Below the pieces are notes generated by a model. That model saw only the letters and a program-made list of their open reading frames with translations, searched no databases and had not been told where the DNA came from. Positions 9,801 through 26,389 of a stretch of DNA of 64,000 bases are shown piece after piece. Each line of letters starts with the position of its first letter. Within the stretch, counting starts at the first letter, position 1. The position numbers and the translations under genes were made by a program. Origin of the DNA: Nautiliales bacterium (lineage in GTDB: Bacteria; Campylobacterota; Campylobacteria; Campylobacterales; JAADDX01); NCBI GenBank assembly GCA_030826765.1, contig JAUUDM010000016.1:4070-68069 (forward strand). The letters run 5' to 3'.

Positions 9801-10264
9801 ATATGGAAGAGGGATTTTTAGAATTTTTTAAAGATATGGTTATTGTTAATGAGTTAGATTTTAAAAATTTTTCTTTAGAAATTACAGAAAGAGAAAGTAT
9901 TGAAAATACTGAACTTACTAAAAATTTTGTAAAAGAGTTAAAAAAAGTCGGAGTAAAACTTGAAATTGATGACTTTGGTGTTGCTTATTCTAATTTAAAA
10001 CAGACTGTGAGTATTGATTTTGATATTTTAAAAATTGATAAGAGTTTCGTAGATAAAATTTATGAAGAAAAAATTCAAATTGCAATCAAATCCACTATAT
10101 TTTTAGCAAAATCTTTTAATGCAAAAACAATTGCAGAAGGTGTTGAAACAAAAGAACAGTTAGAAATTTTAAAAGAATTAGGAGTTGATTACATTCAAGG
10201 ATACTATTTTGCAAAACCTATGCCGTTTAATAAAGCAGTTGAATATTTAAAATTACATATATAA
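6896..10264 (+). CDS. Membrane-anchored CHASE4-like sensor with PAS domains, a degenerate GGDEF domain and an EAL domain (likely c-di-GMP phosphodiesterase)
   Basis: 1122 aa. N-terminal TM, then DWGEWDDAYNFV (CHASE4-type motif), then a second TM (FFLHFILLIIITYIILFVLGIYFV). PAS-like segments follow. The GGDEF position reads RMYDDRF (degenerate). EAL motifs appear intact: FEALLRL, EITERE, DDFGVAYSNL, KIDKSF, AEGVET, QGYYFAKP. Confidence 0.85.
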   Translation: MNFKKLSLKYFIIFIFVNIFLVTLSGLFLFNHIFKEDTTFYVNEKIKTVDFIIHKEASLLKKLSVDWGEWDDAYNFVNDKNKEFINNNFGGNTTLIDLGIKEIIFLDKNLNLVYGRIVDKNKEKEIKKLPPFDYSKNGFNIYFLNHKLYLVYIHDITNTKKNKKNGKIVVFKYLNKKCFEKNGFQILKITCKHYNTLYKIKENSLIIYYPLDKEITLKIAVDFSKVVHLINEFFLHFILLIIITYIILFVLGIYFVNKITEDIEFIFNILSKGIKDSKALEALKNYKFNISEFELINTLFEKLYEKLYDFEQIYNILDQDAPFGVLIYNKNILYGNKFFLNLFSLNKEELKNLDPLVFFKDKSLKEKIAEINRKILNGEKIIFKYSTEIFYKNKNIYVFMVSFPVIYNNNKAIMTFAIDLTKQMEYQEIINRILNSIPVIVFEHSKNGENNITISENIEKILGFKVNEIDENWWVLHLHPKDKERILNEQDELKIKGKLNHIYRLRKKDGSYIWVNEYVFYKKENKEKIYGLVEDLTEEEIIKKLNASLSEINQFLIKAGNKKSIIDYICKKMIESEVFKFAWIGKVKDNKVIPLKHFGEGKEYLDDLVIEISDGVLSKGPTGEVLYNSNIIGINSNTFTNEKISPWREKQIKSGFFSSIAVRLIDDLTINLYSEFTDFYTQEVLNIISSIRSSFMMACEKNKYIEKLQYLTFYDEITNLGNLNKFKKDFNEYHDKYILCMINIKDFTSINSNFGFEFGNKVLKKVAEELKKHLKKEDEVYRMYDDRFLLFFKTDIWNFDIIHNLTQRISDIFSEEGLLIDNNTIFLEINGSIISSKDIEKEKALEGLIYAYVFVKKVVNKCVIYQPWMYEEVKERIYLKELLFRAIREKLFDVYFQPIVDINSYKVVQFEALLRLKDKNKFVNMEKFINIANELQLVPEITKIVVEKVTKYLKTCKNVVVSVNISKIDMEEGFLEFFKDMVIVNELDFKNFSLEITERESIENTELTKNFVKELKKVGVKLEIDDFGVAYSNLKQTVSIDFDILKIDKSFVDKIYEEKIQIAIKSTIFLAKSFNAKTIAEGVETKEQLEILKELGVDYIQGYYFAKPMPFNKAVEYLKLHI

Positions 10265-10659: not shown

Positions 10660-11470
10660 ATGAAACTCTCAAAAACTTTTAAAATCATTGGATTTGGTAC
10701 TTTACTTATAATGTCTCTATTTTTTATAATATTTAATGTAATTGATGAATATAATGAATATCAAGAAGAAGTAACTCACGAAATAAATAAATATATTCTA
10801 ATAGAAAAACAAAAATTAAAAGAAAAAGTTAATTTGTTTGCTGAGGAATTTGAATATATTTTAAATAATATAAAGGCTCTAGAAAAGTTAAAAATCAATA
10901 AGCCCATATTTCTTTTTGGATGATATAAGTAACACAGCTTTATACTTTGATATAACAAAAACAATGATAAGAAAAAGTTGTGAAGTTTTTAAAAATAGAA
11001 AAGAAGATTTTTCTATTAATTTTTCATATAAAGATTTACATAATGAAGATATTAAAAGTTATTTAATTGAACAAATAGAAAAATATAATCTTCAAAATAG
11101 AGTAATAATAGAACTTCTTGAAACTGAAGCTATGGAAGATTTTAAAGAAGTTGTTAAATTTATTAAAGAAATGCATCCTTATGGAATTAAAATAGCAATA
11201 GATGATTTTGGAACAGGATATAGTAATTTTAGTTATTTAGCAGATATTAAACCAGATTATCTAAAAATAGATGGAAGTTTAGTTAAAACTATTGATAAAA
11301 ACAAAAGGTATTATACAATTGTAAAACATGTAAATGCCTTTGCACATGATCTTGGTATCCAAACTATTGCTGAATTTGTACATAATGAAGAAGTTTATAA
11401 TACATTAAAAGAAATAGGTATTGATGCTTTTCAAGGATATTATTTTGCTGAACCAAAAGAAAAAATATAA
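10660..11470 (+). pseudogene. TM-anchored, N-terminally truncated EAL-domain gene split into two frames (10660-10923 and 10916-11470); probable frameshifted or decayed gene
   Basis: ORF1 is a TM helix plus a coiled segment ending KPIFLFG*. ORF2 is in the +1 frame, starts at a TTG, and carries only the distal EAL motifs (ELLETE, DDFGTGYSNF, KIDGSL, AEFVH in place of AEGVE, QGYYFAEP). It lacks the EAL-x-R segment. The frame switch lies at the T5 run at 10913-10917. Confidence 0.5.
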
Positions 11471-11519
11471 AGTTTAGTTATTATTTATCAAGTTTATTTA
11501 AAAAATTTACTAACATATC

Positions 11520-11548
11520 TTGACATATTTTATAAAAATTGATATAAT
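11520..11548 (+). promoter_or_regulatory. Sigma70-type promoter, exact TTGACA-N17-TATAAT, for the hsp20 gene
   Basis: TTGACA at 11520-11525, a 17-nt spacer, TATAAT at 11543-11548. It lies ~45 nt upstream of the RBS-supported ATG at 11595. Confidence 0.6.
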
Positions 11549-11594
11549 TTTAGTACAAAATAACAAAATATCATATGTAATAAAGGAGGAAAAA

Positions 11595-12017
11595 ATGTGG
11601 CCAACAGTATTTGATCCTTTTAAAGAATTACAAGATATAGAAAGAAGATTAGGAGCAGTTCTTCATACAAATAAACCTGTTCAAAAAGTAGAAACTTTTA
11701 CACCTGCAGTTAATGAAAAAGTAGAGGAAAAAGGGTATCATTTAGAAATAGATTTACCTGGAGTAAAAAAAGAAGATATTGAAACAAGTGTAAATGATAA
11801 TATATTAACTATTTCAGGTGAAAGAAAACTTGAACAACAAGAAGAAAAAGATAATTATACAAGAATTGAAAGTTTCTTTGGTAGATTTGAAAGAAGCTTT
11901 AAATTACCATCTGATGCGGATGTTGAAAATATTGAAGCTAAATTTGATGATGGTGTTTTAAAAATATTTATTCCTAAAAAACCTAAAGCTGCAGGTAAAA
12001 AAATAGAAATTAAATAA
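11595..12017 (+). CDS. Small heat-shock protein, Hsp20/alpha-crystallin family
   Basis: AAGGAGG at 11583-11589 precedes the ATG at 11595. Alpha-crystallin core: YHLEIDLPGVKKEDIETSVNDNILTISGER...FGRFERSFKLP...AKFDDGVLKIFIPK. The longer TTG start in the ORF track (11520) is the -35 box of the promoter. Confidence 0.9.
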   Translation: MWPTVFDPFKELQDIERRLGAVLHTNKPVQKVETFTPAVNEKVEEKGYHLEIDLPGVKKEDIETSVNDNILTISGERKLEQQEEKDNYTRIESFFGRFERSFKLPSDADVENIEAKFDDGVLKIFIPKKPKAAGKKIEIK

Positions 12018-12039
12018 GATACTTTTTGATAGTTTTATC

Positions 12040-12062
12040 ATTCCCAACTTATAGTTGGGAAT
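12040..12062. terminator. Hairpin between the convergent hsp20 and Fur-family genes (possible bidirectional terminator)
   Basis: ATTCCCAACT-TAT-AGTTGGGAAT forms a 10-bp perfect stem. The flanks are only weakly T-rich. Confidence 0.5.
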
Positions 12063-12065
12063 AAA

Positions 12066-12458
12066 TTATTGACACTCTTTACAAACTCCGTATAAATATA
12101 CTTCACTTTCATCAATCTCAGAAATTTCACTTAAATTAGGATTACAACTTGTTTTTATTTCAAAGTCATAAATTTTTCCACACTTTTTACAAATAAAATG
12201 TCCATGAGGCTCTTTTTTTATTTCAAAATGTGATTTTGCATCTTGAGGATGAATTTCTAATAAAATTCCTTCATCTTTTAGTGTATGTATATTTTTATAT
12301 ACAGTTGCTAATGAAATTGATGGAAATTTTTCTTTTATGTGTGCATACAAATCATCTATTGAAATATGTCCATTTTTTTGGATTGTTTGTAAAATTTCTA
12401 ATCTTTGTGGAGTTACTTTTAGAGGAGAGTTTTTTAATAGGTTTTGTGAATTTTTCAT
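12066..12458 (-). CDS. Fur-family metalloregulator, PerR-like by context
   Basis: 130 aa. Winged-helix segment KVTPQRLEILQTI...SLATVYKNIHTL, metal-site segment HGHFICKKCGKIYD, and a C-terminal CKEC. Lies directly downstream of a peroxiredoxin gene on the same strand. Confidence 0.8.
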   Translation of the reverse strand: MKNSQNLLKNSPLKVTPQRLEILQTIQKNGHISIDDLYAHIKEKFPSISLATVYKNIHTLKDEGILLEIHPQDAKSHFEIKKEPHGHFICKKCGKIYDFEIKTSCNPNLSEISEIDESEVYLYGVCKECQ

Positions 12459-13368: not shown

Positions 13369-13734
13369 ATGGCAAAAATTTTAATAGTTGATGATGCAAG
13401 TTTGATCAGAAGTGTGGCGCAAAAAGCTGCTGAAGAAGCAGGACATAGTGTAATTACTGCTACAAATGGTGAAGAAGGATTACAGATAACTCAAGAAAGA
13501 GATGATATAGATTTAATATTTAGTGATGTTAATATGCCAATTATGGGTGGTCTTGATATGGTAGAAAAAATAAAACAGATGGATAAATATAAATTTACTC
13601 CTATTGTTATGCTTACAACAGAATCAAATCCTGATTTAAAAGCAAGAGGAAAAGCTTTAGGTGTAAAAGCTTGGATGTTAAAACCGTTTAACAAAGCAAA
13701 ATTTTTGATGGCTATTCAAAAACTGATAGGTTAA
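13369..13734 (+). CDS. cheY: Chemotaxis response regulator CheY (single REC domain)
   Basis: 121 aa. Motifs ILIVDDAS, FSDVNMPIMGG, MLTTES and KAWMLKPF. First gene of the che operon. Confidence 0.9.
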   Translation: MAKILIVDDASLIRSVAQKAAEEAGHSVITATNGEEGLQITQERDDIDLIFSDVNMPIMGGLDMVEKIKQMDKYKFTPIVMLTTESNPDLKARGKALGVKAWMLKPFNKAKFLMAIQKLIG

Positions 13735-13738
13735 ATAT

Positions 13739-13999
13739 ATGAAAATAGAAACTGAAAAAATAGGTATTTACGAAGTAGAAAATTTAAAAAAAAGTTTATT
13801 ACAAGAACTGGAAAACTCTAATTCAATAAATATTGATTTAGAAAAAGTAAAAAAAATAGAACTTTCAGCTATTCAGTTATTTGTTTCTTTAAAAAAAAGT
13901 TGTGATGAAAAAGGTATTGTATTAACTTTTTCAAAAATAAATGAAGATATTCATAAAAATATTGAAATGAGTGGATGCGATTCTTTTTTGGGGGTATAA
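13739..13999 (+). CDS. Small STAS-domain protein (anti-sigma-antagonist fold), CheS-like by position
   Basis: 86 aa. STAS-like pattern INIDLEKVKKIELSAIQLFVSLKKSCDEKGIVLTFSKINEDIHKNIEMSG. Starts 4 nt after cheY and abuts the cheA start. Confidence 0.55.
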   Translation: MKIETEKIGIYEVENLKKSLLQELENSNSINIDLEKVKKIELSAIQLFVSLKKSCDEKGIVLTFSKINEDIHKNIEMSGCDSFLGV

Positions 14000-16051
14000 A
14001 TGGATGAATTAGATTTATTTCGTGAAGATTCAGAAGAACAACTTCAAGCAATGGAGAATGCTCTTGTTGAAGCTAATGAAAATGGTGTTGATGAAGAGAT
14101 AATAGGATCAATTTTCAGAGCTATGCATACTATTAAAGGAAGTGCCGGTATGTTTGGCTTTGATAATGTAGTTAATTTTACTCACGTTGCAGAAAATCTT
14201 ATGAGTGAAGTAAGAAATGGAAAAGTTGAGTTAGATAGTGAATTAATTGAACTATTTTTTGGGGTTAAAGATCATGTTGAAAAGTTAATTGAATTAGAGA
14301 CGGCTTCTTTACCTTTAGACGGAGAAGTTTTAGAAAAAAATTATGATTTAATAGATAAATTAACTAAAAAACTGCCTGAAAATAATTTATTAAATGAAAT
14401 AGTGTCAATTGAACAAGAAATTAAAGAAAAAAATGATACTAATGAAGACAATACAATGTGGCATTTGTCTATTAGATTACATGAGGATTTTTTCGAATCA
14501 GGCATGGATATTTTATCAATATTCAGTTTTTTAAATAGTATGGGTGAAGTAGTTATAAATATACCAATACTTAATAATATACCGAAATTAGAAGATATTT
14601 CTCCAACAAAAGCTTATATTGGATTTGAAATTGATTTTATGACAGATGTTGATAAAGATATGATAGAAGAAGCTTTTGAATTTATATTAGATGATATTGA
14701 ATTAAAAGTCTTTAGACATAATGATGAAAAAGCTGTAAAAAAATTTTTAGAAAATGTAGAAGAATGTGTATTAAAAGAATTGAATGATAATGGTATTTTT
14801 GAAATTGAAACTTCTGTTGAAAATAAAAAAGAAATTCCAAAAATAGAAGAAAAAAAAATATCAACTCCTTCTAAAAATAAAAAATCAACCAAAAATTTTT
14901 CTTTAAGAGTTGAATCAACAAAAGTTGATCAACTAATGAATCAAATTAGTGAGATGGTGATTGCAAATGCAAAAGTTGCTCAAATGGCTGAATTAAAAGA
15001 GGATAATGAATTAGAAGAAGCTTCAGAAACACTTACTCATTTACTAGAAGAAATTAGAAATTCAGTAATGAGTATAAGAATGGTTCCTGTTGAAGACTCT
15101 TTTATTAAATTTAAAAGAATCGTAACAGATACAGCTAAAAAACTTGGAAAAGATATTGAATTTATAATTACAGGTGGAGATACTGAGCTTGATAAAACCG
15201 TTATAGAAAAAATAAATGATCCACTTGTACATATGCTTAGAAACTCTATTGATCATGGTATTGAGATGCCTCCAGAGAGAATAGCTAAAGGTAAAAATCC
15301 AAAAGGAAGAATTGAATTAAAAACTTATCCTGATGCTGGAACTATTGTTATAGAAATTATAGATGATGGTGCTGGATTGGATTCTGAGAAATTAAAACAA
15401 AAAGCTATTGATAAAGGACTGATTGATAGTAATGCAAATTTAACAGATAAAGAGTGTTTTGAACTTATTTTTCATGCAGGATTTTCTACAGCTAGTCAAG
15501 TCTCTGATATCTCAGGAAGAGGTGTTGGAATGGATGTTGTAAGAAGAAATATAGAAGAGTTAAGAGGAAAAATAGAGATTGACTCCATACTTGGTAAAGG
15601 AACTAAATTCACAATTAGACTTCCGTTAACTTTAGCTATTATAGATGGATTTTTAGTACAAGTTGGAAATAGTAAATTTGTAATTCCTTTAGATATGATT
15701 CAAGAGTGTATAGAACTTACAAAAGATTACAAAGAAAAAATGAAAGGTAATAATTTTGTAAATCTTAGAGGTGAAATATTACCTATATTTGATGTAAGAA
15801 AATATTTTAATGAAGATAAAAGCTATTATGAAAGAGAAAATATAGTGGTTGTTAGATATGCAAACTATTATATTGGTCTTTTAGTAGATGAACTTTTTGG
15901 TGAATATCATACGGTTATTAAACCTTTAGGGGAAGTATTCTCTAATGTTGCTGGAATATCAGGAGGTTCAATACTTGGAAGTGGAGAAGTGGCTCTTATA
16001 TTTGATATACCCGCATTGATTGATTATTATATAAAACAACAAAGGAGTTAA
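14000..16051 (+). CDS. cheA: Chemotaxis histidine kinase CheA
   Basis: Hpt segment FRAMHTIKGSAGMFGF, N box HMLRNSIDHGIE, G1 box DDGAGLD, G2 box GRGVGMDVV, and a C-terminal CheW-like domain. Confidence 0.95.
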   Translation: MDELDLFREDSEEQLQAMENALVEANENGVDEEIIGSIFRAMHTIKGSAGMFGFDNVVNFTHVAENLMSEVRNGKVELDSELIELFFGVKDHVEKLIELETASLPLDGEVLEKNYDLIDKLTKKLPENNLLNEIVSIEQEIKEKNDTNEDNTMWHLSIRLHEDFFESGMDILSIFSFLNSMGEVVINIPILNNIPKLEDISPTKAYIGFEIDFMTDVDKDMIEEAFEFILDDIELKVFRHNDEKAVKKFLENVEECVLKELNDNGIFEIETSVENKKEIPKIEEKKISTPSKNKKSTKNFSLRVESTKVDQLMNQISEMVIANAKVAQMAELKEDNELEEASETLTHLLEEIRNSVMSIRMVPVEDSFIKFKRIVTDTAKKLGKDIEFIITGGDTELDKTVIEKINDPLVHMLRNSIDHGIEMPPERIAKGKNPKGRIELKTYPDAGTIVIEIIDDGAGLDSEKLKQKAIDKGLIDSNANLTDKECFELIFHAGFSTASQVSDISGRGVGMDVVRRNIEELRGKIEIDSILGKGTKFTIRLPLTLAIIDGFLVQVGNSKFVIPLDMIQECIELTKDYKEKMKGNNFVNLRGEILPIFDVRKYFNEDKSYYERENIVVVRYANYYIGLLVDELFGEYHTVIKPLGEVFSNVAGISGGSILGSGEVALIFDIPALIDYYIKQQRS

Positions 16052-16053
16052 TA

Positions 16054-16911
16054 TTGGAAGTAAAAGAAAAAAAATTCAATGATAATGAAATGATAGTATC
16101 TATGACTGATGCGAAAGGAATCATTACTTATGCTAATGATATATTTTGTAAAATGGCAGAATATGATTTAGAAGAGGTAATAGGAAAGCCACATAATATG
16201 TTAAGACATCCTGATATGCCAAAAGTTGTTTTTAAATTAGTATGGAAAAATCTTTTAGCTGGTAGAAATTTTTATGGTTTTGTAAAAAATAAGACAAAAA
16301 ATGGAAATTATTATTGGGTAAAAGCATTTTTTCAACCTATCATAAAAAATGGAAGAGTTGATAAGTTAATATCATATAGACAATCAGTAAACGATTATAC
16401 AAAAGAGATTATTTCACCTGTTTACAAACAACTTTTAGATATAGAATCAAAAGAAGGTATAGTAGGAAGTGAGAAATTTTTAAATGATTTTTTAAATAAA
16501 AGAAATTTAAGTTATATGGAGTTTATAGATAGGTTAAGTGTTGGAAAATCTATAACAAATCCAGCTGTTTTTGATATTAATTATGAAAGTTTTTATAACG
16601 ACCATATAATTTTTAAAGAGCATATAAAGCATCAATGTGAATTAAAAAACTTCGATGTAAAAGTAACTGATAGTTGTTGTTGTAGATTTGGAAAATGGTT
16701 AGATAGTGTAAAAAATGAAGATTATACTAATCATCCAAGTTGGAAAAATATTCATTATGCTCATGATGATTTTCATAATAAATTAAAAGAGTATGTATCA
16801 AGTATGAAAAACTCAAATTCTACTTTATCTAATAAGTTATTAGAAGATATAGAACAAGATACAGAAAAAATTTTTGATAATCTTCAAAAAGTAATTGATG
16901 AGAGCCGTTAA
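16054..16911 (+). CDS. Stand-alone sensor: Aer/CetB-type PAS domain plus a C-terminal CZB (chemoreceptor zinc-binding) domain
   Basis: The PAS domain is very close to the Aer pattern (TDAKGIITYANDIFCKMAEYDLEEVIGKPHNMLRHPDMPKVVF...NGNYYWVKAFFQPI). The CZB motif H-xx-F-x22-C-x-F-G-x-W-x21-H-xxx-H reads DHIIF...CRFGKWL...HDDFH. TTG start with AAAGGAG 6 nt upstream. Confidence 0.75.
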   Translation: MEVKEKKFNDNEMIVSMTDAKGIITYANDIFCKMAEYDLEEVIGKPHNMLRHPDMPKVVFKLVWKNLLAGRNFYGFVKNKTKNGNYYWVKAFFQPIIKNGRVDKLISYRQSVNDYTKEIISPVYKQLLDIESKEGIVGSEKFLNDFLNKRNLSYMEFIDRLSVGKSITNPAVFDINYESFYNDHIIFKEHIKHQCELKNFDVKVTDSCCCRFGKWLDSVKNEDYTNHPSWKNIHYAHDDFHNKLKEYVSSMKNSNSTLSNKLLEDIEQDTEKIFDNLQKVIDESR

Positions 16912-16955: not shown

Positions 16956-18740
16956 ATGAAATCTAAAGAACAATTAGAAGAAATAAAAAAAGTTTTAAAA
17001 GAAATATCAAAAGGAAATTTTGATGTTTTTTTAAGTAGTGAGAATAAATGTTTTGATGAATTTAAAGATTTAAAAGAAAATTTATCAAATTTAGAAAGTG
17101 ATATTAAAGATGTAAATGAGGCTGCATTAAAAGGTGAAATTGATGTAAGAATTGATGCTAGGAAATATGAAAATGGATTTAGAAAAATAGCTGAAGCTTT
17201 AAATTATACTATAGATTCAAATACTGGCGCTGTTAGAGAAATGGGGCAAGTAATTAGAAAATTGGCAAGTGGTGATTTATCTGCAAAAGTTACAAATAAT
17301 TATTCAGCAGATTTAAATGAAGTAAAAGAAGCTATTAATTATTTAGCAGATACTTTAAATAATCTAAGAAAAGATGCTGTACTTATTAGTGACGCAGTAT
17401 CAAAAGGTGAACTTAGTGTTAGAATAGATACATCTAAATATAAAGGAGATTTCACTTTAATACATAAAACTACTAATTTTACAATAGAAAGTGTTAATAA
17501 ATCATTTAAAGAAATTGCAGATGCATTAGTTAAGTTTGGAGAGGGGCAGTTTAAATATAGAATTACAAATGATTATAATGGAGATTTTAATACAATAAAA
17601 GAGTCTTTTAATCAAGCTTTTATTATTACGAATACTATTTTTGAAGAAGTTATTATGATGAAAGAAGCTGTTGAAAATGGAAATTTAGATGTTAGAGCTG
17701 ATATAAGTAAATATAAAGGCGATTTTATAGAATTAGTAGGTACTCTGAACTTAATGGTAAATATTACAAAAGATGCTTTAAATGATATTAATGAGAATTT
17801 AGAAAAACTAAAAATGGGAGATTTAACTACACAAATTACAAAAGATTATAAAGGAGCATTTGGTATTACAAAAGATGCTTTTAATAATTTTGTAGAAAAT
17901 TTAACTTCTATTACTACACAAATTAAAACAGGTGCTAATGAAATTACAACAGCAGCAAATACAGTAAGTAGTGCTTCTCAATCACTTTCAACAGGAGCAA
18001 CTGAGCAAGCAAGTAGTTTAGAAGAAACGAGTGCAGCTATTGAAGAAATGAGTGGCTCTATCAATGAAACAGCCAAAAATGCTATTAAAACAAATGAACT
18101 TGCAGAAGAGAGTGCAAAAATGTCTCTTGAAGGTGGAGAAGCTGTTGATAAAACAGTTGATGCTATGAAAACTATTAGTGAAAGAATTAAAATAATTGAA
18201 GATATTGTATATCAAACAAATTTACTTGCACTTAATGCAGCAATTGAAGCAGCTAGAGCAGGAGAGCATGGAAAAGGATTTGCAGTTGTGGCAGCTGAGG
18301 TTAGAAAATTAGCAAAAAGAAGTCAAATTGCAGCAGGTGAGATTAGTGAAATAACAAGAGATAGTCTAGATATTTCTCAAAAAGCTGGAACTTTAATCTC
18401 TACAGTAGTTCCAAAAATTCAAGAAACAGCAAATTTAATTAAAGATATTGCAAATGCAGCAAAAGAACAAGATATTGCAATTTCTCAAATCACATCAGCT
18501 ATGAGTCAGTTAGACCAAGTAACACAAGCAAATGCTTCATCTTCTCAAGCTTTAGCTGCGTCAGCTAAACAATTAAATGGACAAGCAAACTCTTTAACAG
18601 AAATGATTTCATTCTTTAAATTAGCAGATAGTCATGTAGGTGGTGGTTTTAATGCAGGTAAAGTTTCTCCACAAACAGTATCAAAACCAGCTAAAAACCT
18701 AAATAGTGAATTTGATTTAAGAGATTTTGATAGATATTAA
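16956..18740 (+). CDS. Soluble methyl-accepting chemotaxis protein with an N-terminal tandem HAMP-like array (no TM segment)
   Basis: 594 aa with no hydrophobic stretch. Three tandem ~88-aa repeat pairs are followed by the MCP signalling domain ([22 protein letters not shown]...[34 protein letters not shown]). Confidence 0.9.
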
Positions 18741-18741
18741 T

Positions 18742-19251
18742 ATGAAAAATAGAGATTACGAAGATGATTTAGACCTTAGTCTAAATCAAGATGGAGAACA
18801 ATATCTATTTTTCTCTTGTAACAATGATTTTTATGCAATTGATGCTTTAAGAGTGGTGGAGATTATAGAGTATCAACTGTATACTAAAGTTCCTATGATG
18901 AAAAGATTTGTCAAAGGAATTACAAATGTAAGAGGTGATTTGATAGCTGTAGTTGATTTAAAAGATTTTTTTGGATTTGGTGAAACTATCAAAGATAAAA
19001 AAACATCTATGATTATACTAAATGTAAAAAATAGTGATAATGAACTTAAAATTGCTATTATTATCGATGAGGTGTTTGAAGCTAAATATTTAGGCGAAGA
19101 AGATATAAAAAGTGCACCAGAATTTGGTGTTAAAATAGATTCAAAGTTTATAAAAAATATGTGTCAATATAATGGAAATTATATACCTATTTTAGATATT
19201 GATAAATTATTAAATGTAAAACAATTATCTAAAATTGAATTACATCAATAA
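18742..19251 (+). CDS. cheW: Chemotaxis coupling protein CheW
   Basis: CheW-like domain (YLFFSCNNDFYAIDALRVVEI...ITNVRGDLIAVVDLKDFFG). The ATG lies 1 nt after the MCP stop. The TTG start in the ORF track (18727) would overlap the MCP. Confidence 0.9.
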   Translation: MKNRDYEDDLDLSLNQDGEQYLFFSCNNDFYAIDALRVVEIIEYQLYTKVPMMKRFVKGITNVRGDLIAVVDLKDFFGFGETIKDKKTSMIILNVKNSDNELKIAIIIDEVFEAKYLGEEDIKSAPEFGVKIDSKFIKNMCQYNGNYIPILDIDKLLNVKQLSKIELHQ

Positions 19252-19260
19252 AGGTTTTGT

Positions 19261-20202
19261 ATGATAGAAGATATTAAAACAAATGATGATTTTAATGAAG
19301 AAGATGATGAATTAGATATTATAAAGTTAGTTTCTACTAATGCAAATAATTCTAATCAATATCTGATTTTTAATGGTTCAAATGGTGAACTTTATGCCAA
19401 AAATGTTTCTAAAATCGAGGAGTTAATTGTATATAAAGATTTAGAAATTGCTCATAACTCAACGGGTTCGCTTATTATAGGAACAGCTGATGTAAGAGGT
19501 CAGATGACACCTATTGTGAATTTCGATGAGTGGTTTGGAAATAAAGTTTTAGATGATAGTGAATATGAACTTGTAGTATTAGCTAGTTATGGTGGATATA
19601 GATTTGGGATTGTTGTAAAAAGTGTTGAGTATATTGTGGCTATTGAGCCAGAAGATATGGTTGATAATTCTATATCAAATCCAAAAACTACATTTATAAC
19701 AAAAGTAAAAGTTGGAAGTGAAAATAGACTTTGTACTATTTTTGATAGTGATAAAATGCTTTTAGATATTTTTGAAAATAGTGAAAAAAGTAATTTAGAA
19801 AAAATTTCAAATGTTACATCTAAGAGAGTTAGTGAAAAATTAGTTCTATTTGCTGATGATTCTAAATTTATTAGAGAAATGGTGAGAAAATTTTTTGTAG
19901 CTATGGATCTTAATTATAAAATTTTTGAAGATGGAAAATATTTGATTGAAGAACTTAAAAAATTAAATCCTAATGATATAGGACTTATTATTACTGATTT
20001 AGAGATGCCAAATCTTGGAGGTAAGGAAGTAATTAAATTTATTAGAGAAAATTTAAAATTTAATGATATAAATATAATAGTTCATACAAATATGTCAAAT
20101 AATATTATGGAAGAAGATTTATTAAAAGCAGGTGCAAATCAAATTATAAACAAAATTGATATGAAAGAATTATCGCAGAGTATTAAAAAGAATATAAGAT
20201 AA
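19261..20202 (+). CDS. cheV: CheV (CheW-like domain fused to a C-terminal REC domain)
   Basis: CheW-like N-terminal half (YLIFNGSNGELYAKNVSKIEE...). REC half with LFADDS, ITDLEMPNLGG and VHTNMS. Confidence 0.9.
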   Translation: MIEDIKTNDDFNEEDDELDIIKLVSTNANNSNQYLIFNGSNGELYAKNVSKIEELIVYKDLEIAHNSTGSLIIGTADVRGQMTPIVNFDEWFGNKVLDDSEYELVVLASYGGYRFGIVVKSVEYIVAIEPEDMVDNSISNPKTTFITKVKVGSENRLCTIFDSDKMLLDIFENSEKSNLEKISNVTSKRVSEKLVLFADDSKFIREMVRKFFVAMDLNYKIFEDGKYLIEELKKLNPNDIGLIITDLEMPNLGGKEVIKFIRENLKFNDINIIVHTNMSNNIMEEDLLKAGANQIINKIDMKELSQSIKKNIR

Positions 20203-21008
20203 TGAACAATTTAATCTTAAATGATAAAGAATTCAAAGTTTTTCAAAAAATTATTTTTGATGAGACTGGAATTAGTTTGAGTGATTCTAAAAAGATGTTA
20301 GTTCAAAGCAGATTATTAAAAAGAATTGCTTTTTATAAGATGAATAGTTTTTTAGATTATTTGAGATATATTCAAATAAATAAAAAAGAAAAAATAGAAA
20401 TGATAAATCAAATAACTACTAATGAAACTTATTTTTTTAGAGAAATGAAACATTTTGAATTTATTGAAAAGTTAGCTAAAAATATGGATATTAAAAGTAG
20501 GTTAAGAATATGGAGTGCAGCGTCTTCGGTAGGTGCTGAAGCTTATAGCCTTGCTATGGTAGTTGATGAATATTTAAGAAAAGATCAATGGGAAATAGTT
20601 GGTACAGATATAAATACAGAAGTTATTAAAAAAGCTAGAATTGGTCTTTATCCTGAAAGTTGGGTGAAAAAAATACCATTAAAATATAGACAAAAATATT
20701 GTTTAAAAGGAAAAGGGAATTATGAAGGACAATTTCTAGTAGATAGAAAACTAATCACTAATATAAAATTTGAAAAAGGTAATTTATTGGTAAAACAAGA
20801 AGGAATAGGAAAGTTTGATGTTGTTTTTTTAAGAAATGTTTTGATATACTTCAATGATGAAATAAAAAAACGCGTTATTCATAATGTGATTTCAAATTTA
20901 AAAATCGGTGGTTATTTTATTATTAGTTTGACAGAGAATTTAAAAAACTTAGATATAAAAGAGTTAGTTCAATTAGATACTTCTATATATCAAAAGGTAA
21001 GTAAATGA
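20202..21008 (+). CDS. cheR: Chemotaxis protein methyltransferase CheR
   Basis: ETYFFRE motif, SAM-binding segment RIWSAASSVGAEAYSLAM, and VFLRNVLIYF. Confidence 0.9.
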   Translation: MNNLILNDKEFKVFQKIIFDETGISLSDSKKMLVQSRLLKRIAFYKMNSFLDYLRYIQINKKEKIEMINQITTNETYFFREMKHFEFIEKLAKNMDIKSRLRIWSAASSVGAEAYSLAMVVDEYLRKDQWEIVGTDINTEVIKKARIGLYPESWVKKIPLKYRQKYCLKGKGNYEGQFLVDRKLITNIKFEKGNLLVKQEGIGKFDVVFLRNVLIYFNDEIKKRVIHNVISNLKIGGYFIISLTENLKNLDIKELVQLDTSIYQKVSK

Positions 21009-21817
21009 AAATAATGGTTGTTTCGAGCAAAGGTGGAGTTGGTAAAAGTACAATCTCTATGCAATTAATTGCTCCTTATCTTTATATACGTAATGATAAA
21101 AAACCTATTAAATTTTATGAATGTGATGATGAAAATAGTGATAGTTTGAGTTTTGGTGCATCTAATTTAATAGATAGAAAGTTAATAAAAGTGGATGTTC
21201 CTATCTTAAGAGAAGAACTTCTTGAAATTTTTTCTAAACCTGAGTTTACTTGTATGGATATTGGGGGAAATAAATCTACTACTATGGTTTTAGATGCCTT
21301 AGATTTAAGTGGGGCTATTCATTTTGTAGATTTAGCAGTTATTCCTATTTTAGATGGGGAACAAGATGCTATTAATGCAAGTGTTGTTTATACTCAAATA
21401 AAAAGTATGAATCCTAATATTAAATTTTTGTTTGTTTTAAATAGATGTAAAAATGAGAGATTTTTAGAGTATCAGTTTGAAAATTATTTTGGAGATGTGA
21501 GAGGAATTTTCAGTGAAAAATATGCTGTAAAAAACTATCTTTTTGATAATGATAAAGATAATTATATAGCTTTATTAGATGATGATGTTATAAAATATAG
21601 TAGAAAGTTTGGTCTTACTATTTATGAAATTGCAAAACAACAAAGAGATTTTATTCCTGAACTTAAAGTAAAAGTAGAAAAAATGACAAATGAACAAGAA
21701 GCAAAACTATTAAGTTTTAAGAATTATGTAAATAAAAGTGCAATAAAATATTATGAAAATGTCTTAATAAAAGGATTTAAAAAAATTGATAAAATATCAC
21801 AAAAGGGTAAATTATGA
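21005..21817 (+). CDS. ParA/MinD-family P-loop ATPase embedded in the che operon
   Basis: Deviant Walker A in MKIMVVSSKGGVGKSTIS, with candidate A'/B motifs ECDDEN and FTCMDIGG. Overlaps cheR and the next ORF by 4 nt on each side. Confidence 0.75.
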   Translation: MKIMVVSSKGGVGKSTISMQLIAPYLYIRNDKKPIKFYECDDENSDSLSFGASNLIDRKLIKVDVPILREELLEIFSKPEFTCMDIGGNKSTTMVLDALDLSGAIHFVDLAVIPILDGEQDAINASVVYTQIKSMNPNIKFLFVLNRCKNERFLEYQFENYFGDVRGIFSEKYAVKNYLFDNDKDNYIALLDDDVIKYSRKFGLTIYEIAKQQRDFIPELKVKVEKMTNEQEAKLLSFKNYVNKSAIKYYENVLIKGFKKIDKISQKGKL

Positions 21818-22731
21818 TAACAAGTAAGATTCAAGAATTTGTAGCATTTCTAGCTTCATCTAAAAGAGTGTTAATATTAAGTAATAGAGATATGTCACAA
21901 TTTATGGATATATTTGATAATTTTGAAATGGCTATTTTTGAAGGTATTAATGAAAATAGTATAAAAAATTTAAGTTTTAATTTTACAAAAAATCATATAG
22001 ATATTGTAATTTTTGCACCAGATGAAGATTTTGAAGATATTCTTTCTATGTATGGAAAAATTAAAGGAATATCTAATGAGACAGAAATACTTTTAATATT
22101 ACCTGAATATTGTAAAACAGATGAAATAGTTGAGATAGTTGATACTTATGATGTTGTAATGGGAGGAAATTTTTCAAGAGAAGTTTTATTAAATAGATTA
22201 TTTAGAGTCCTTAGTGCTCAATATGCAGTGAATAATGTTAATTTTGTATCAGAAGCTCTTTTTAAAGATGTTGAAAATAATAATAAAAAAGAACTTGAAG
22301 AGTTCTTGGATGTTTATGAAGGTGCTGTAATATTTTTGATAGATAATTTAGCTGAATTAATTGATCAATTAAAAAATGGAAATTTATCACAAGAATTACT
22401 TCAAAGGATTGGTGAAGAACTTATGGAAGTTCATGAAATATTTTCTATTCATAACTATACAAGAAAAGTAGCTCCAATATTTCAAAAATTTTCAGAATAT
22501 TTAAAAAATTTAAAATTAGAGGATATAGATGTTGAAAATTTAGAAGCTTTTAATTATTTAACAGATATTTTAGAAGATATAAATATTTATTTAAAAGATT
22601 ATTTTATTGATAGAATTTTTCAGGATGTTTATATGTTTCAGCATTCTCTTGAAAGTAATATAGAGTTTTTAGAAGCTAAATTAGCCGGAAAAGAAGATAG
22701 TGATGATGAAGATAGTTTAGAGTTTTTTTAA
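21814..22731 (+). CDS. Unknown che-operon protein X1: degenerate receiver-like N-domain, helical (Hpt-like?) C-domain and an acidic tail ending LEFF
   Basis: 305 aa. Shares 4-nt and 1-nt overlaps with the parA-like gene and cheB. C-terminus reads ...GKEDSDDEDSLEFF. Paralogous to the ORF at 23772-24902 over the C-terminal ~130 aa. Confidence 0.65.
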   Translation: MITSKIQEFVAFLASSKRVLILSNRDMSQFMDIFDNFEMAIFEGINENSIKNLSFNFTKNHIDIVIFAPDEDFEDILSMYGKIKGISNETEILLILPEYCKTDEIVEIVDTYDVVMGGNFSREVLLNRLFRVLSAQYAVNNVNFVSEALFKDVENNNKKELEEFLDVYEGAVIFLIDNLAELIDQLKNGNLSQELLQRIGEELMEVHEIFSIHNYTRKVAPIFQKFSEYLKNLKLEDIDVENLEAFNYLTDILEDINIYLKDYFIDRIFQDVYMFQHSLESNIEFLEAKLAGKEDSDDEDSLEFF

Positions 22732-23702
22732 TGATTAAAGTATTTATTATTGATGATTCTATATTAGTCAGAACAAAAATTATTAATATTTTACAAGATA
22801 AAGAAATTAATGTAATTGGAGATGCAGGAAATCCTATTGATGCTTTAAATATTTTTAAAAAAGTTGGCCTTCCTGATTTATTTATATTAGATATAGAAAT
22901 GCCAAAAATGAATGGTGTAGAATTTTTAGAAAAAATAAACACTCAAAGACCAACACCAGTGGTTATTATTTCTTCTTTTGTAGATGAAATTGTAAAAAAT
23001 AAATTATGTAATATAAATTCTACAATAGAAATGTTGCCTAAAACAAAAATGCAAAATATGAATAATTTTTCTAAAGATTTAATTAATAAAATTCATTTTC
23101 TAACAAATTCTAATATAAAAAAGCCTTCAAATTTACCATCATCAAAAATTATTTCTATTGGTTCTTCCACAGGAGGTGTTCAGATATTAGAAGAGATTGT
23201 TAGTAAAATAAATTATGGGCATAAAGGTATAGTGATTGTTCAGCATATGCCCGAAAGTTTTACTGCTTCTTTTGCTTCAAGACTTAATTCTCTGACAAGG
23301 AGTGAAGTAGTAGAAGCAAGAGAGGGAGATATTATTAAAGATTCTAAAATCATAATAGCAAAAGGCGGTATCCATTTAGAAGTGTATCATGCAAAAGATG
23401 GTTTTAGAGTTAGATTTAAAGATTATAAAAAAGTAAATTTTCATAAGCCAAGCGTAAATGTTTTATTTAAGAGTGTTGCAGAAAATGTTGGCAAAAGAGC
23501 TATGGGAATAGTTTTGACAGGTATGGGAGATGATGGAGCGATTGGTTTAAAAATGATGAGAGAAGCTGGAGCTCTTACTTATGCACAAGATGAAAAGTCA
23601 TCAATTGTTTATGGAATGCCAAAGGTAGCTTTAGAGATCGGTGGGGCTATGGAATCTTTGAATATTAATCAAATTGTAGAAAAAATAAATAATTTTAAAT
23701 AA
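22731..23702 (+). CDS. cheB: Chemotaxis methylesterase/deamidase CheB (REC + esterase domains)
   Basis: REC domain with VFIIDDS and ILDIEMPKMNG. Esterase domain with IGSSTGG, VQHMP and TGMGDDG. Confidence 0.9.
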   Translation: MIKVFIIDDSILVRTKIINILQDKEINVIGDAGNPIDALNIFKKVGLPDLFILDIEMPKMNGVEFLEKINTQRPTPVVIISSFVDEIVKNKLCNINSTIEMLPKTKMQNMNNFSKDLINKIHFLTNSNIKKPSNLPSSKIISIGSSTGGVQILEEIVSKINYGHKGIVIVQHMPESFTASFASRLNSLTRSEVVEAREGDIIKDSKIIIAKGGIHLEVYHAKDGFRVRFKDYKKVNFHKPSVNVLFKSVAENVGKRAMGIVLTGMGDDGAIGLKMMREAGALTYAQDEKSSIVYGMPKVALEIGGAMESLNINQIVEKINNFK

Positions 23703-23742
23703 TATTTACTAAAAGTAAATAAATTTTTATTTTTAGTAAATA
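23703..23742 (+). terminator. AT-rich hairpin after cheB (12-bp inverted repeat); weak terminator or processing site
   Basis: TATTTACTAAAA (23703-23714) pairs with TTTTAGTAAATA (23731-23742). A nested alternative is ATTTACT-AAA-AGTAAAT. Confidence 0.35.
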
Positions 23743-23771
23743 TTATAGTAATAAAATAATTGGAGGATACT

Positions 23772-24902
23772 ATGTTTATAGATGTAAAAGAGATAAAACC
23801 TTTAGTATTAGAAAATATTCAAAATCAAGGTGTGGTTCTTTTATCAAATAAAAAAAAATTTATTAAAGAATTTAAAAAAAATTTTTCTAAATTATCACAT
23901 AAAATAAAAATTTTGGATGATGAAACAAAAGGTTTACATGAGATATTAAAAAATGAAGATTTATATGATATTATAATTACAAATTTTAAAAATGGCTATA
24001 AAATAAAACGAATTATGCCCCATAAAAAGGTTTTAGTTGTTGATTATAAAGAAAATTTTGATTTTAAATATATAATTGTTGATGAATTTGTATCTAAACC
24101 AGTTGATAAAGTTATTTTTTATAATGCTATGTATTCTTTAACAAAAGTTATTGCAGATGAAAAAGAATTAAAATATTATCTAAACTCTTTAGAAACTGAA
24201 ATATCAGAATTGAATTGTAATATGTGTAGAACTTTAAATAAAAATATTGATGATATAAATTTATTAAGAAAAGAACTCTTTTCCCTTATGCATCATAATT
24301 GTGAATTTCAGTATAACTCTTCTCTATGTGGAATTGAGGAAAAAATTAAAGAAAAAGAAAAAATAGAAAATGATAAATATGAAAATCATAATATGAGATT
24401 TACCCTTGATGAAGATAAAAAAATAGATGCCCAAACTTTTGTATCAGAATTAAATGATATTGATTTTGAAAGAGTTGATATATTAAAAGAACATTTTGGA
24501 GAATTTACAATATTTCTAAATAATGCCTATACTATGGATTATTTAGAATTTTATGAAAATAAAGATTATATAGTATCTATGCTTAATGAATTATATCAAT
24601 CTATAAATAGATTTTATAGATTTGAGATTTTGGCTATTACATTTAAAGATTTTGCTGATTTTATAAATAATTTAACATTAGAAGATTTACAAAAAAGTGA
24701 TAATAAGGAAATGTTTCTAGATTCTTTAATTGCTATTATTGATGATGTAATTGATTGGATTGATATAATTTTCTTTTTGAAAACTACAGATAATATAAAT
24801 TATCTTGATGCTTCTTTTTCTAGTAATTGTGAACAAATTAAAGAAATATTTAAAAATGAAGAAGTATTAGAAGATGATATGGATGATTTAGAGTTTTTTT
24901 AA
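23772..24902 (+). CDS. Unknown che-operon protein X2: receiver-like N-domain, long linker, helical C-domain and an acidic tail ending LEFF (paralogue of X1)
   Basis: GGAGG lies 6 nt before the ATG at 23772 (the TTG start at 23760 in the ORF track is rejected). C-terminus reads ...EVLEDDMDDLEFF. The final 15 nt (tttagagtttttttaa) are identical to the X1 3' end. Confidence 0.65.
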   Translation: MFIDVKEIKPLVLENIQNQGVVLLSNKKKFIKEFKKNFSKLSHKIKILDDETKGLHEILKNEDLYDIIITNFKNGYKIKRIMPHKKVLVVDYKENFDFKYIIVDEFVSKPVDKVIFYNAMYSLTKVIADEKELKYYLNSLETEISELNCNMCRTLNKNIDDINLLRKELFSLMHHNCEFQYNSSLCGIEEKIKEKEKIENDKYENHNMRFTLDEDKKIDAQTFVSELNDIDFERVDILKEHFGEFTIFLNNAYTMDYLEFYENKDYIVSMLNELYQSINRFYRFEILAITFKDFADFINNLTLEDLQKSDNKEMFLDSLIAIIDDVIDWIDIIFFLKTTDNINYLDASFSSNCEQIKEIFKNEEVLEDDMDDLEFF

Positions 24903-24919: not shown

Positions 24920-26389
24920 TTATCTTCTTCTATTTCTGTCACCACTTCTTGAAGAGTTTCTACCACCTCTATCACCACCACCGTTTCTTGATGAAGAATT
25001 TCTACTTCTGTTACCACCTCTGTAACCACCTCTACTTCTTCTTCCTCTATCTCCCCCTCTATCATTTTTGGCTCTTGATTCAATTCTTGAAATTTCATTC
25101 ATATTTTTACCGATTCTTTCGTTTCCGGCAATTTTCATTTCATCTTCAAGTAGAGTCGCAAGTTTATAAGCGATAGTAGATAAGTCATATTCTTCTTTTA
25201 ATTGTTCAATTAATGTAATAGAATTTTCACTTACATCAGCTTGTTCGATTTTTTCAAGAAGTTCGTTGCTTTTTTTACCTTTTACTTCATGGATTGAAGG
25301 TATCTCTTTTGCGATTAGTTTGCTTCCTACTGATTTTTGAATTTTTAATAAACTTCTAAATTCAGCCGGAGTTACCAAAGAGATAGCCAAACCTTCTTTT
25401 CCGGCTCTTCCGGTTCTTCCGATTCTGTGCACATAACTTTCAGAATCAAATGGAATATGGTAGTTAAATACATGAGTTACATCATTTACATCAAGCCCTC
25501 TCGCCGCCACATCTGTCGCTACTAAAATTTCAAGGTCTTTTTTGAACGCTCTGATTGTTTCTTCTCTTTGTCTTTGTTCCATATCTCCGTGAAGACCCTT
25601 AGCTGCATAACCTTGAGAAACAAGCATAGTAGTAATTCTATCTACTTCACTTTTCATCCTACAGAAAATTATAGCTTTATTTGGGTCTTTATAGTCAAGT
25701 AGTCTGATTAGTGCTTCATCTCTTTCAAACTCTTCAACTACATAAAAACTTTGAGTGATTTTTGCATTTGTTACTTCGCTTTTTGTAATTGTGATAAATT
25801 CTGGCTCAACCAAGATTCTTTTTGCCAAATCTTTGATAGCTTGAGGCATTGTTGCACTAAATAAAAGTGTTTGTCTGTCACTTGGCATAAATGTGAATAT
25901 TTCTTTGATATCGTCTAAAAATCCCATATCAAGCATTTCATCTGCTTCATCTAATACTACATATTTTGGTGCTATATCAATTTTACCACCTCTTAGTAAA
26001 TCCAAAAATCTACCTGGTGTAGCTACTATTACACTTGCTTTTTCGATATGTTTAAGTTGTCTTGAATAACTTGTTCCACCATAAACTGTAGCTGTGTTGA
26101 TTCCCAAAAATTTTCCAAATCTGAAAATTTCATCACTAACTTGTGTTGCAAGTTCTCTTGTTGGCACGATAATTACTGCTTCTACACTTCCGTCAAGTTC
26201 TAATTTATTTAAAATTGGAAGTCCAAATGCTGCTGTTTTTCCTGTTCCTGTTTGTGCTTGTCCTACGATATCTTTTCCAGCTAAAACTACCGGAATTGCT
26301 TTTTCTTGAATCGGACTTGGTTCTTTAAATCCTGCTGTTTCGATTGCTTTGTTTAGTTCGTCTCTGAAATTAAATTCTGTAAATGTCAT
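24920..26389 (-). CDS. deaD: DEAD-box ATP-dependent RNA helicase with a C-terminal RGG/RS-rich tail
   Basis: Q motif region FKEPSPIQ, motif I AQTGTGKT, motif II DEAD, SAT, HRIGRTGRAG, and the tail RGGDRGRRSRGGYRGGNRSRNSSSRNGGGDRGGR. Confidence 0.9.
   Translation of the reverse strand: MTFTEFNFRDELNKAIETAGFKEPSPIQEKAIPVVLAGKDIVGQAQTGTGKTAAFGLPILNKLELDGSVEAVIIVPTRELATQVSDEIFRFGKFLGINTATVYGGTSYSRQLKHIEKASVIVATPGRFLDLLRGGKIDIAPKYVVLDEADEMLDMGFLDDIKEIFTFMPSDRQTLLFSATMPQAIKDLAKRILVEPEFITITKSEVTNAKITQSFYVVEEFERDEALIRLLDYKDPNKAIIFCRMKSEVDRITTMLVSQGYAAKGLHGDMEQRQREETIRAFKKDLEILVATDVAARGLDVNDVTHVFNYHIPFDSESYVHRIGRTGRAGKEGLAISLVTPAEFRSLLKIQKSVGSKLIAKEIPSIHEVKGKKSNELLEKIEQADVSENSITLIEQLKEEYDLSTIAYKLATLLEDEMKIAGNERIGKNMNEISRIESRAKNDRGGDRGRRSRGGYRGGNRSRNSSSRNGGGDRGGRNSSRSGDRNRRR

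Follow-up and report, generated by a model that had tools for sequence, protein, structure and literature searches.

The chemotaxis protein CheZ (PF04344) consists of a helical bundle followed by a flexible linker and by an acidic C-terminal peptide ending in Phe (...VDDLLDSLGF in E. coli). This peptide docks on CheY, as the N-terminal peptide of FliM also does, and tethers the substrate for the CheZ bundle. Here we report on two proteins, X1 (305 aa) and X2 (376 aa), encoded at positions 21814–22731 and 23772–24902 on the + strand of a 64,000-nucleotide stretch of DNA from a Nautiliales bacterium (GenBank assembly GCA_030826765.1, contig JAUUDM010000016.1, positions 4,070 to 68,069). The whole stretch is referred to as the window, and all coordinates given without a contig handle are those of the window. 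Both genes are part of a chemosensory (che) operon, and both products join a receiver-like N-terminal domain (N-domain) to a helical C-terminal domain (C-domain) and end in an acidic tail. The two open reading frames (ORFs) and their ends, DSDDEDSLEFF in X1 and LEDDMDDLEFF in X2, are present as described in a first-pass annotation of the sequence.

X1 and X2 thus share with CheZ the helical bundle, the flexible linker, the acidic Phe-ending C-peptide and the location in che operons. CheZ differs in having a catalytic Asp-x3-Gln pair and a longer tail, no sequence similarity between the two is detectable, and X1 and X2 carry an N-terminal receiver or pseudo-receiver domain which CheZ does not have. 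A further likeness is found in the NWETF-type pentapeptide, placed after a linker at the C-terminus of chemoreceptors and serving as a tether for CheR and CheB. As the tail of X1 and X2 may be, it is a conserved C-terminal aromatic docking peptide following a flexible linker in a che system, but its place is on receptors and its pattern, x-[WFY]-x-x-[FWY], differs from the DLEFF of X1 and X2. The N-terminal peptide of FliM/FliY and the P1-linker-P2 segment of CheA are similar in that a short acidic-hydrophobic peptide, or a tethered module, docks receivers next to a functional domain, as might be the case for X1 and X2; these segments are however N-terminal or internal, and their sequences are unrelated to LEFF. 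The tail of SSB (..DDDIPF), a hub for many partners, has the same disordered acidic run, hydrophobic tip and terminal Phe, but it belongs to DNA metabolism, reads I-P-F instead of L-E-F-F and shows no contextual link to che operons.

ChePep, a Campylobacterota-specific acidic protein with a putative receiver motif at the N-terminus, affects CheY-dependent switching (PMC3143842; see also PMC9665402). Compared by description and composition, ChePep resembles X1 and X2 in phylum, in the N-terminal receiver-like motif and in acidity. On the other hand, Asp and Glu make up about 30% of ChePep, with poly-Glu tracts (PMC3143842), against 20% of X1 and of X2 and a maximum of 26% in their family; no ChePep-like poly-Glu protein (>26% Asp+Glu) was found among 237 family proteins. 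On the whole, X1 and X2 appear most like accessory regulators of the CheZ or ChePep type, and yet, judging from the analyses reported below, they would belong neither to CheZ nor to the Hpt proteins, the true receivers or the partners of ParA.

Architecture of X1 and X2 and conservation of their tail

Pairwise BLASTP between X1 and X2 was marginal (E 0.043, 30% identity in the last 90 aa). When the alignments of the two families were compared by hhalign, a probability of 91% (E 1e-6) was obtained over 294 columns, from the N-terminus to the tail and thus over the full length; a hidden Markov model built on X2-type sequences only gave X1 a score of 51.5 bits, and the converse test worked too. 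By sequence comparison X1 and X2 are therefore paralogues, as had been proposed from inspection, and the alignment of the C-domains on which that proposal relied, including a His of X1 (His207) opposite a Tyr of X2, is the same alignment found by hhalign. The two genes also share an identical 3′ end, whose length had been given as 15 nt and is in fact 16 nt (T-TTA-GAG-TTT-TTT-TAA). Since a genomic G+C content of 26.6% leaves little codon choice, this identity adds nothing beyond the shared peptide; recent gene conversion was considered and rejected, codon bias being sufficient to account for the identical nucleotides.

AlphaFold2 models, built with alignments of 63–64 sequences, had a mean predicted local distance difference test score (pLDDT) of 82.6 for X1 and 85.0 for X2 and gave the same order of elements in both proteins, i.e., an N-terminal helix, a (beta-alpha)5 domain, an extended alpha-5, a linker of low confidence, a helical domain and the tail. 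In X1, the N-domain (residues 1–135, nt 21814–22218) combines the N-terminal helix with a receiver-like (beta-alpha)5 fold whose active site is dead; it is followed by a C-domain of five helices (residues 157–290, nt 22282–22683), bearing the family-invariant D255, F264 and S278, and by the tail (residues 291–305, nt 22684–22728), made of an acidic linker plus L-E-F-F, with pLDDT <50 at residues 296–305. In X2, where the linker is longer, a receiver fold (residues 1–112, nt 23772–24107) precedes a middle region (residues 113–207, nt 24108–24392) with a long alpha-5 extension helix (113–156) and a low-confidence segment (176–207). The helical C-domain (residues 208–361, nt 24393–24854), with the family-invariant D325, W329, F334 and S348, and the tail (residues 362–376, nt 24855–24899), an acidic linker plus D-D-L-E-F-F with pLDDT <50 at residues 368–376, complete the protein. 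All these segments lie on the + strand. The tails are undocked in both models, which would be the expected look of a tether acting in trans.

Foldseek searches against the PDB matched the N-domains with receiver domains (CheY, DivK, Spo0F and KdpE), with a target-normalised template modelling (TM) score of 0.65–0.77. The catalytic set of PF00072 (D12/D13, D57, T87, K109) is found neither in X1, where the aligned positions are occupied by S23, N24, A68 (acceptor position) and G118, nor in X2, where S25, N26, N71 (acceptor position) and D91 are observed, and no PF00072 match was returned by Pfam for either protein. Because the receiver fold is present but the catalytic residues are lost, X1 and X2 are pseudo-receivers. 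The first-pass annotation had indeed read both N-domains as receiver folds deprived of the acidic pocket, with a Lys-Pro pair retained in X2 alone, and this agrees both with the predicted folds and with the presence of K109-P110 in X2 and G118 in X1.

Direct searches retrieved three close relatives for X1 and 12 for X2, all ending in ...LEFF. Searching with a C-domain profile brought up 886 cluster representatives (clusters at 50% identity) at E≤1e-3, of which 439 reached E≤1e-10, and the match extended nearly always to the last residue of the protein. A [LIVMF][ED][FL]F terminus was present in 220 of 237 family proteins (93%), as compared with a fraction of 0.0007 (0.07%) expected from composition, and most of the exceptions are apparently truncated or have 1–4 further residues after LEFF. 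The ending first noticed as common to X1 and X2 is thus nearly invariant both in orthologues and in distant relatives, with the consensus (D/E)n-[L/I]-[E/D]-[F/L]-F. Within the C-domain, which has about 140 aa and is peculiar to this family, the family-wide invariants are, in X2 numbering, D325 (100%), F334 (99%) and S348 (99%), besides W/Y329 and D/N341, and to these the terminal Phe is added. The N-termini of the family vary and include bona fide receiver (REC) domains (PF00072, E 1e-17 to 1e-28), REC-PAS, pseudo-REC and a region of about 350 aa with no Pfam match. The acceptor Asp and the Lys are kept in about 40% of 63 X2-type representatives, and the relatives found in the X2 position of contigs L022 and L023 are complete receivers with all catalytic residues. 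Since many relatives carry a true receiver domain, the C-domain and the tail together form an output module of response regulators.

The tail is not confined to proteins with the family C-domain. Contig L055 encodes (1684–2421, − strand), between the gene of a 560-aa family member and cheB, a stand-alone GGDEF protein of 245 aa (PF00990 at residues 71–233) that ends in LYENDDLEFF. In contig L008, downstream of X2, an EAL-PAS-GGDEF protein (10934–12286, + strand) ends in LYENEDIDFF. Both of these tailed cyclases are devoid of the family C-domain and lie inside orthologous che operons. In addition, the metagenomic protein P0093 (642 aa) contains two tandem C-domains, the first one followed by ESDLEFFDEVEEDVDDDTLEFFDEE, and DLEFF and TLEFF occur internally in its linker, so that a free carboxylate is not strictly required for the tail. 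As it is carried by GGDEF proteins and by P0093, the tail is a portable short linear motif, presumably aimed at a shared partner. A similar end, NSDDLDDLEFF, was also seen in a 927-aa HerA-like ATPase (DUF87) encoded by contig L082 (3202–5985, − strand), in a context unrelated to che genes; this could be due to chance or to an independent use of the tail.

No meaningful match in Pfam or NCBIfam was obtained for X1, X2 or 14 isolated C-domains, a sequence-profile search of the PDB retrieved only an insignificant match (2ets, E 0.019), and a literature search on the tail strings gave nothing relevant. The named members, annotated as "hypothetical protein" or "response regulator", are from Sulfurimonas (including S. 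autotrophica, whose Saut_0974 is the X1 orthologue), Sulfuricurvum, unclassified Campylobacterota and Limisalsivibrio acetivorans, which we take to be a member of the Deferribacterota. Going by the Pfam, NCBIfam and paper searches, the family is undescribed, and the initial view of X1 and X2 as members of no characterised family can be maintained. What would be new is a che-accessory or response-regulator protein combining a new output domain with a putative new docking motif.

The C-domain had also been called Hpt-like in the first-pass annotation, but this was not borne out. No Hpt or CheZ match was found by Pfam for the 14 C-domains, even at E≤10. By hhalign, comparisons were made with E. 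coli CheZ, CheA-P1 of E. coli and of the window, a 7-sequence P1 profile, a true REC-Hpt and an HDOD-associated Hpt-like segment; all probabilities were ≤0.3% (0.1–0.3% in the Hpt comparisons), a 240-sequence C-domain profile giving 0.3% for the CheA-P1 profile and 0.16% for the true REC-Hpt. Sequence homology to Hpt or CheZ was therefore rejected, although a distant relationship of fold may exist. Moreover, the position of His207 is occupied by Ser or Ala in X1 orthologues, and no Hpt appeared in the Foldseek top 50 of either full-length model, where the receiver domain dominates the matches. The best structural match of the X2 C-domain was the peptide-binding helical STI1 domain 9ckx_A (E 5.7e-4), weak at a target-normalised TM of 0.36. 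A genuine REC-Hpt gene, with the AHKLKG motif and no LEFF tail, is located directly after cheB in contig L023 (10953–11648, + strand).

The che operon of the window and its relatives

As defined by Pfam scan, the che operon comprises 12 genes, all on the + strand. It opens with cheY (13369–13734), encoding a single-domain CheY, and a small STAS-domain gene (13739–13999; 86 aa, anti-sigma-antagonist-like), which also separates cheY from cheA in those orthologous operons for which sequence of this end is available. These are followed by cheA (14000–16051; Hpt, dimerisation, HATPase and CheW-like domains), a gene for a PAS + CZB sensor (16054–16911), a gene for a soluble poly-HAMP chemoreceptor (16956–18740), cheW (18727–19251), cheV (19261–20202; CheW-like + REC) and cheR (20202–21008), coding for the methyltransferase. 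A gene for a ParA/MinD-like P-loop ATPase with the Walker A KGGVGKS (21005–21817; hereafter parA-like) then precedes X1, cheB (22731–23702; REC + methylesterase) and X2, after which a DEAD-box helicase gene (24920–26389) is convergent with the operon. Stop-to-start overlaps connect cheR, the parA-like gene, X1 and cheB; in particular, the X1 start overlaps the parA-like stop (ATGA), and the X1 stop overlaps the cheB start. For X2, the ATG at 23772, lying 5 nt after GGAGG and in agreement with the database protein P0004, is a better start than the TTG at 23760. The gap between cheB and X2 is filled by a 21-nt AT-rich inverted repeat (23699–23746; 95% complementary, 6-nt loop) directly upstream of the X2 ribosome-binding site, which may form a hairpin within the operon or serve as an operator; in several orthologous operons this gap is missing, and cheB and X2 abut.

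Among the proteins of the cluster, CheY is conserved best (67–75% identity). In the 12 operon genes Pfam detected no CheZ, CheC or CheX domain, nor any other known phosphatase domain acting on phosphorylated CheY (CheY-P), so that the operon indeed appears without a known CheY-P phosphatase, as the first-pass annotation had it.

Related loci were compared by BLAST, using the che proteins of the window as probes. A scan of the genome collection with a narrow peptide pattern yielded 13 loci, and further ones were obtained from a metagenome scan for the tail DNA. The translationally coupled arrangement cheR-(parA-like)-X1-cheB-X2 was found in more than 20 independent contigs from Sulfurimonas, Sulfuricurvum and other Campylobacterota. 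The wider order cheY-STAS-cheA-(PAS/CZB)-receptor-cheW-cheV-cheR-(parA-like)-X1-cheB-X2 recurs in contigs L002/L015, L003/L004, L008, L013, L014, L016, L017, L020, L022 and L023, and in the metagenome contigs L033, L038, L051, L055, L069, L071, L076 and L084. The places of X1 and X2, on either side of cheB in the orthologous operons seen, are therefore conserved in related che clusters, in keeping with the initial reading of both as che proteins.

The parA-like gene, on the contrary, varies with the operon type: it is present in about 12 contigs, and at least eight operons with X1, X2 or both have no copy of it (L001, L003/L004, L008, L022, L023, L033, L076 and L084), and cheR adjoins X1 on its upstream side in operons of this kind. 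Because of these absences, a role of X1 and X2 as dedicated adaptors for the ParA-like ATPase, one of the options initially considered, is disfavoured, the co-occurrence with the parA-like gene not being obligate.

Of 45 metagenome loci, many of them short contigs, 20 have a cheB gene adjacent to a family gene or at most two genes from it. A family member of about 550 aa is encoded between X1 and cheB in L024, L055, L069 and L084, and three to four family members are present in some operons, L084 having four. Two members have other neighbours. P0015, in L003, has a FIST-PAS histidine kinase and a REC-GGDEF-EAL gene next to it, and this cluster is itself adjacent and convergent to a che operon. 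Next to P0009, in L006, are HD-GYP genes, a kinase and a SiaABC-like module.

In L011 (2082–3332) and L016 (10504–11766), by Pfam, and in L020 (4082–5350), by similarity, X2 is directly followed by a gene for a WspR-type REC-REC-GGDEF cyclase; no such gene follows X2 in the window. Because several operons continue in this way, the che pathway looks like a non-flagellar one linked to cyclic di-GMP (c-di-GMP), whose level it may control. According to a survey (PMC9321776), Sulfurimonas and Sulfuricurvum possess, in addition to the flagellar F3 class, further che classes that have one or two cognate receptors. Enzymes of c-di-GMP metabolism are dense in the window itself (6896–10264, 10916–11470, 44323–46386 and 61914–63185), their architectures including CHASE4-PAS-GGDEF-EAL, Cache-GGDEF-EAL and protoglobin-GGDEF; a 184-aa EAL ORF of the window covers only profile positions 55–236, being N-terminally truncated; either a pseudogene or a wrongly assigned start could explain this.

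Related clusters are also flanked by HDOD-domain proteins, one of them with a weak Hpt match (L022, 12063–13670, + strand; L023, 1–1281, − strand). J-domain (DnaJ) genes adjoin X2-type genes in L002 (11056–11700, − strand) and L019 (6020–6796, + strand), possibly by coincidence. Elsewhere in the window (1991–4117), a 708-aa protein gave strong WD40 beta-propeller matches; proteins of this kind are unusual, though known, in bacteria.

Proposed role of the tail and alternative partners

We propose that X1 and X2 are accessory proteins of a non-canonical che pathway, in which their receiver-fold domain can no longer be phosphorylated and the tail would serve as a tether to one partner shared within the pathway. 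The likeliest site for the tail would be the alpha4-beta5-alpha5 face of a receiver domain, either of the operon CheY or of the REC of CheB or CheV. Once the tail had docked, the conserved face of the helical domain (D325, D/N341, S348 and N/S352, in X2 numbering) would come to lie on the same partner, which might be sequestered, scaffolded or dephosphorylated. The LEFF-tailed proteins, that is X1, X2, the relatives of about 550 aa and the tailed GGDEF cyclases, would then constitute the effector and regulator set of the pathway.

That the tail docks X1 and X2 onto such a receiver domain (CheY, or the REC of CheB or CheV) is put forward tentatively, as something possible rather than probable. 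A partner of this kind is favoured because the known receiver-docking peptides are similar short acidic-hydrophobic terminal segments on a flexible linker and because CheZ follows an equal bundle-linker-tail plan. It is also favoured because CheY, being the most conserved protein of the operon, would fit an invariant ligand, and because a diffusible phospho-CheY would explain how tailed GGDEF proteins without a receiver domain could be controlled. Furthermore, C-domain and tail are nearly always paired, which suggests that the two bind one partner in a bipartite manner, a mode that would fit a clamp, a sink or a phosphatase. Taken to its full extent, this reading makes the acidic-[L/I]-[E/D]-F-F tail a hitherto unrecognised docking code for phosphorylated CheY (or for the CheB/CheV receiver) of a non-flagellar che pathway of Campylobacterota and related phyla, where the tail would define the effector set and the helical domain would be a new receiver-directed regulator (phosphatase, sink or clamp); in this complete form we hold it to be rather unlikely.

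Several observations weigh against docking on a receiver. No sequence similarity was detected between the C-domain and E. coli CheZ (hhalign probability 0.05%), and neither the catalytic Asp/Gln pair of CheZ nor any conserved Gln was found among the family invariants, which, being Asp, Ser and Phe, differ from the Asp/Gln or Glu/Asn pairs of the known CheY-P phosphatases. The tail has only 4–6 ordered residues, compared with the helix of about 12 residues of CheZ. In addition, some family members have, at a distance from che genes, ordinary histidine kinases and c-di-GMP enzymes as neighbours (L006; P0015 in L003), and it is possible that the partner of the tail is not che-specific. The synteny with cheB, finally, may reflect the common descent of one operon type and not independent selection.

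The tail might, alternatively, bind a component other than a receiver and work as a localisation tag, bringing the tailed cyclases, like X1 and X2, to the cytoplasmic array of chemoreceptors; CheA P5, CheW, the coupling domain of CheV, the receptor, the STAS protein, the ParA-like ATPase or a pole/nucleoid landmark are the candidate partners. MinD/ParA-type ATPases bind acidic-hydrophobic peptides, as FlhG does with the N-peptide of FliM/FliY. The receptor is soluble and poly-HAMP, and many operons include a ParA-like ATPase, a combination resembling the partitioned cytoplasmic-array systems, and the tail is carried by several different proteins of one operon. Recruitment to the array is nonetheless doubtful in our opinion, as at least eight operons with X1 or X2 have no parA-like gene and as the near-inseparability of helical domain and tail would be left unexplained. 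This last feature, with domain and tail found together in 93% of the members, would be accommodated if the helical C-domain were itself the receptor for LEFF. Head-to-tail hetero-oligomers or a scaffold could then be formed, to which tail-only GGDEF proteins would be recruited and whose assembly would be gated by the receiver or pseudo-receiver. The presence of up to four family members per operon, the two tandem C-domains and three LEFF motifs of P0093, and the peptide-binding nature of the STI1 domain retrieved as best Foldseek match of the X2 C-domain are consistent with such self-assembly. That match is however weak (target-normalised TM 0.36), AlphaFold2 leaves the tail undocked in cis (pLDDT <50), and the tail-less, receptor-only members that would be expected are rare and mostly truncated-looking; we thus regard self-assembly as distinctly unlikely.

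The order cheR-X1-cheB-X2, with its overlapping stops and starts, would also be in accordance with a tether acting in trans, by which the tail, a C-terminal aromatic peptide after a flexible linker, would hold the adaptation enzymes encoded by the neighbouring genes as the NWETF pentapeptide of receptors does. The receptor of the window, however, already possesses a separately conserved C-terminal tail, FDLRDFDRY (residues 586–594, nt 18711–18737), and the motif L(D/N)LR(D/E)F(D/N)R(Y/F) is found after a variable low-complexity linker in at least nine orthologous receptors. Its last residues, DFDRY (xFxxY), fit the pentapeptide definition, whereas X1 and X2 do not, since they are not receptors and DLEFF has a Leu in place of an aromatic residue at position 2. 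The CheR of the window keeps Q182, G188, G190 and G194 of the E. coli beta-subdomain, with the changes R187K and R197L, and we assume that these residues have a role in tether binding. As the receptor has its own pentapeptide-type tail and the CheR beta-subdomain residues are kept, and the LEFF tail occurs also on proteins outside che loci, a function as CheR/CheB tether seems very unlikely. Even less credit can be given to a C-domain representing a degenerate Hpt, active as phosphotransfer relay or phosphate sink. It would account for a helical bundle placed after a receiver domain, the slot directly after cheB is occupied in L023 by the genuine REC-Hpt gene, and His207 of X1 aligns at the end of helix 2. 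Yet no Pfam signal and no hhalign probability above 0.3% were obtained, no His is conserved, and the L023 REC-Hpt has no LEFF tail and coexists with an X2-type gene, all of which makes this explanation improbable in the extreme.

Should the tail be a docking code for phosphorylated CheY or for the CheB/CheV receiver, the tail-bearing diguanylate cyclases would link the chemosensory array directly to a c-di-GMP output without the need of a receiver domain on the enzyme. To our knowledge, few non-flagellar chemosensory pathways have a known CheY target. The locus described here offers a sequence-defined handle, namely a tail of 4–6 residues present on pseudo-response regulators, true response regulators and diguanylate cyclases of one conserved operon. 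The receptor of the tail, once found, would name the output of this class of pathways and give a function to a family of several hundred clusters, and the system may represent a new way of regulating receiver domains.

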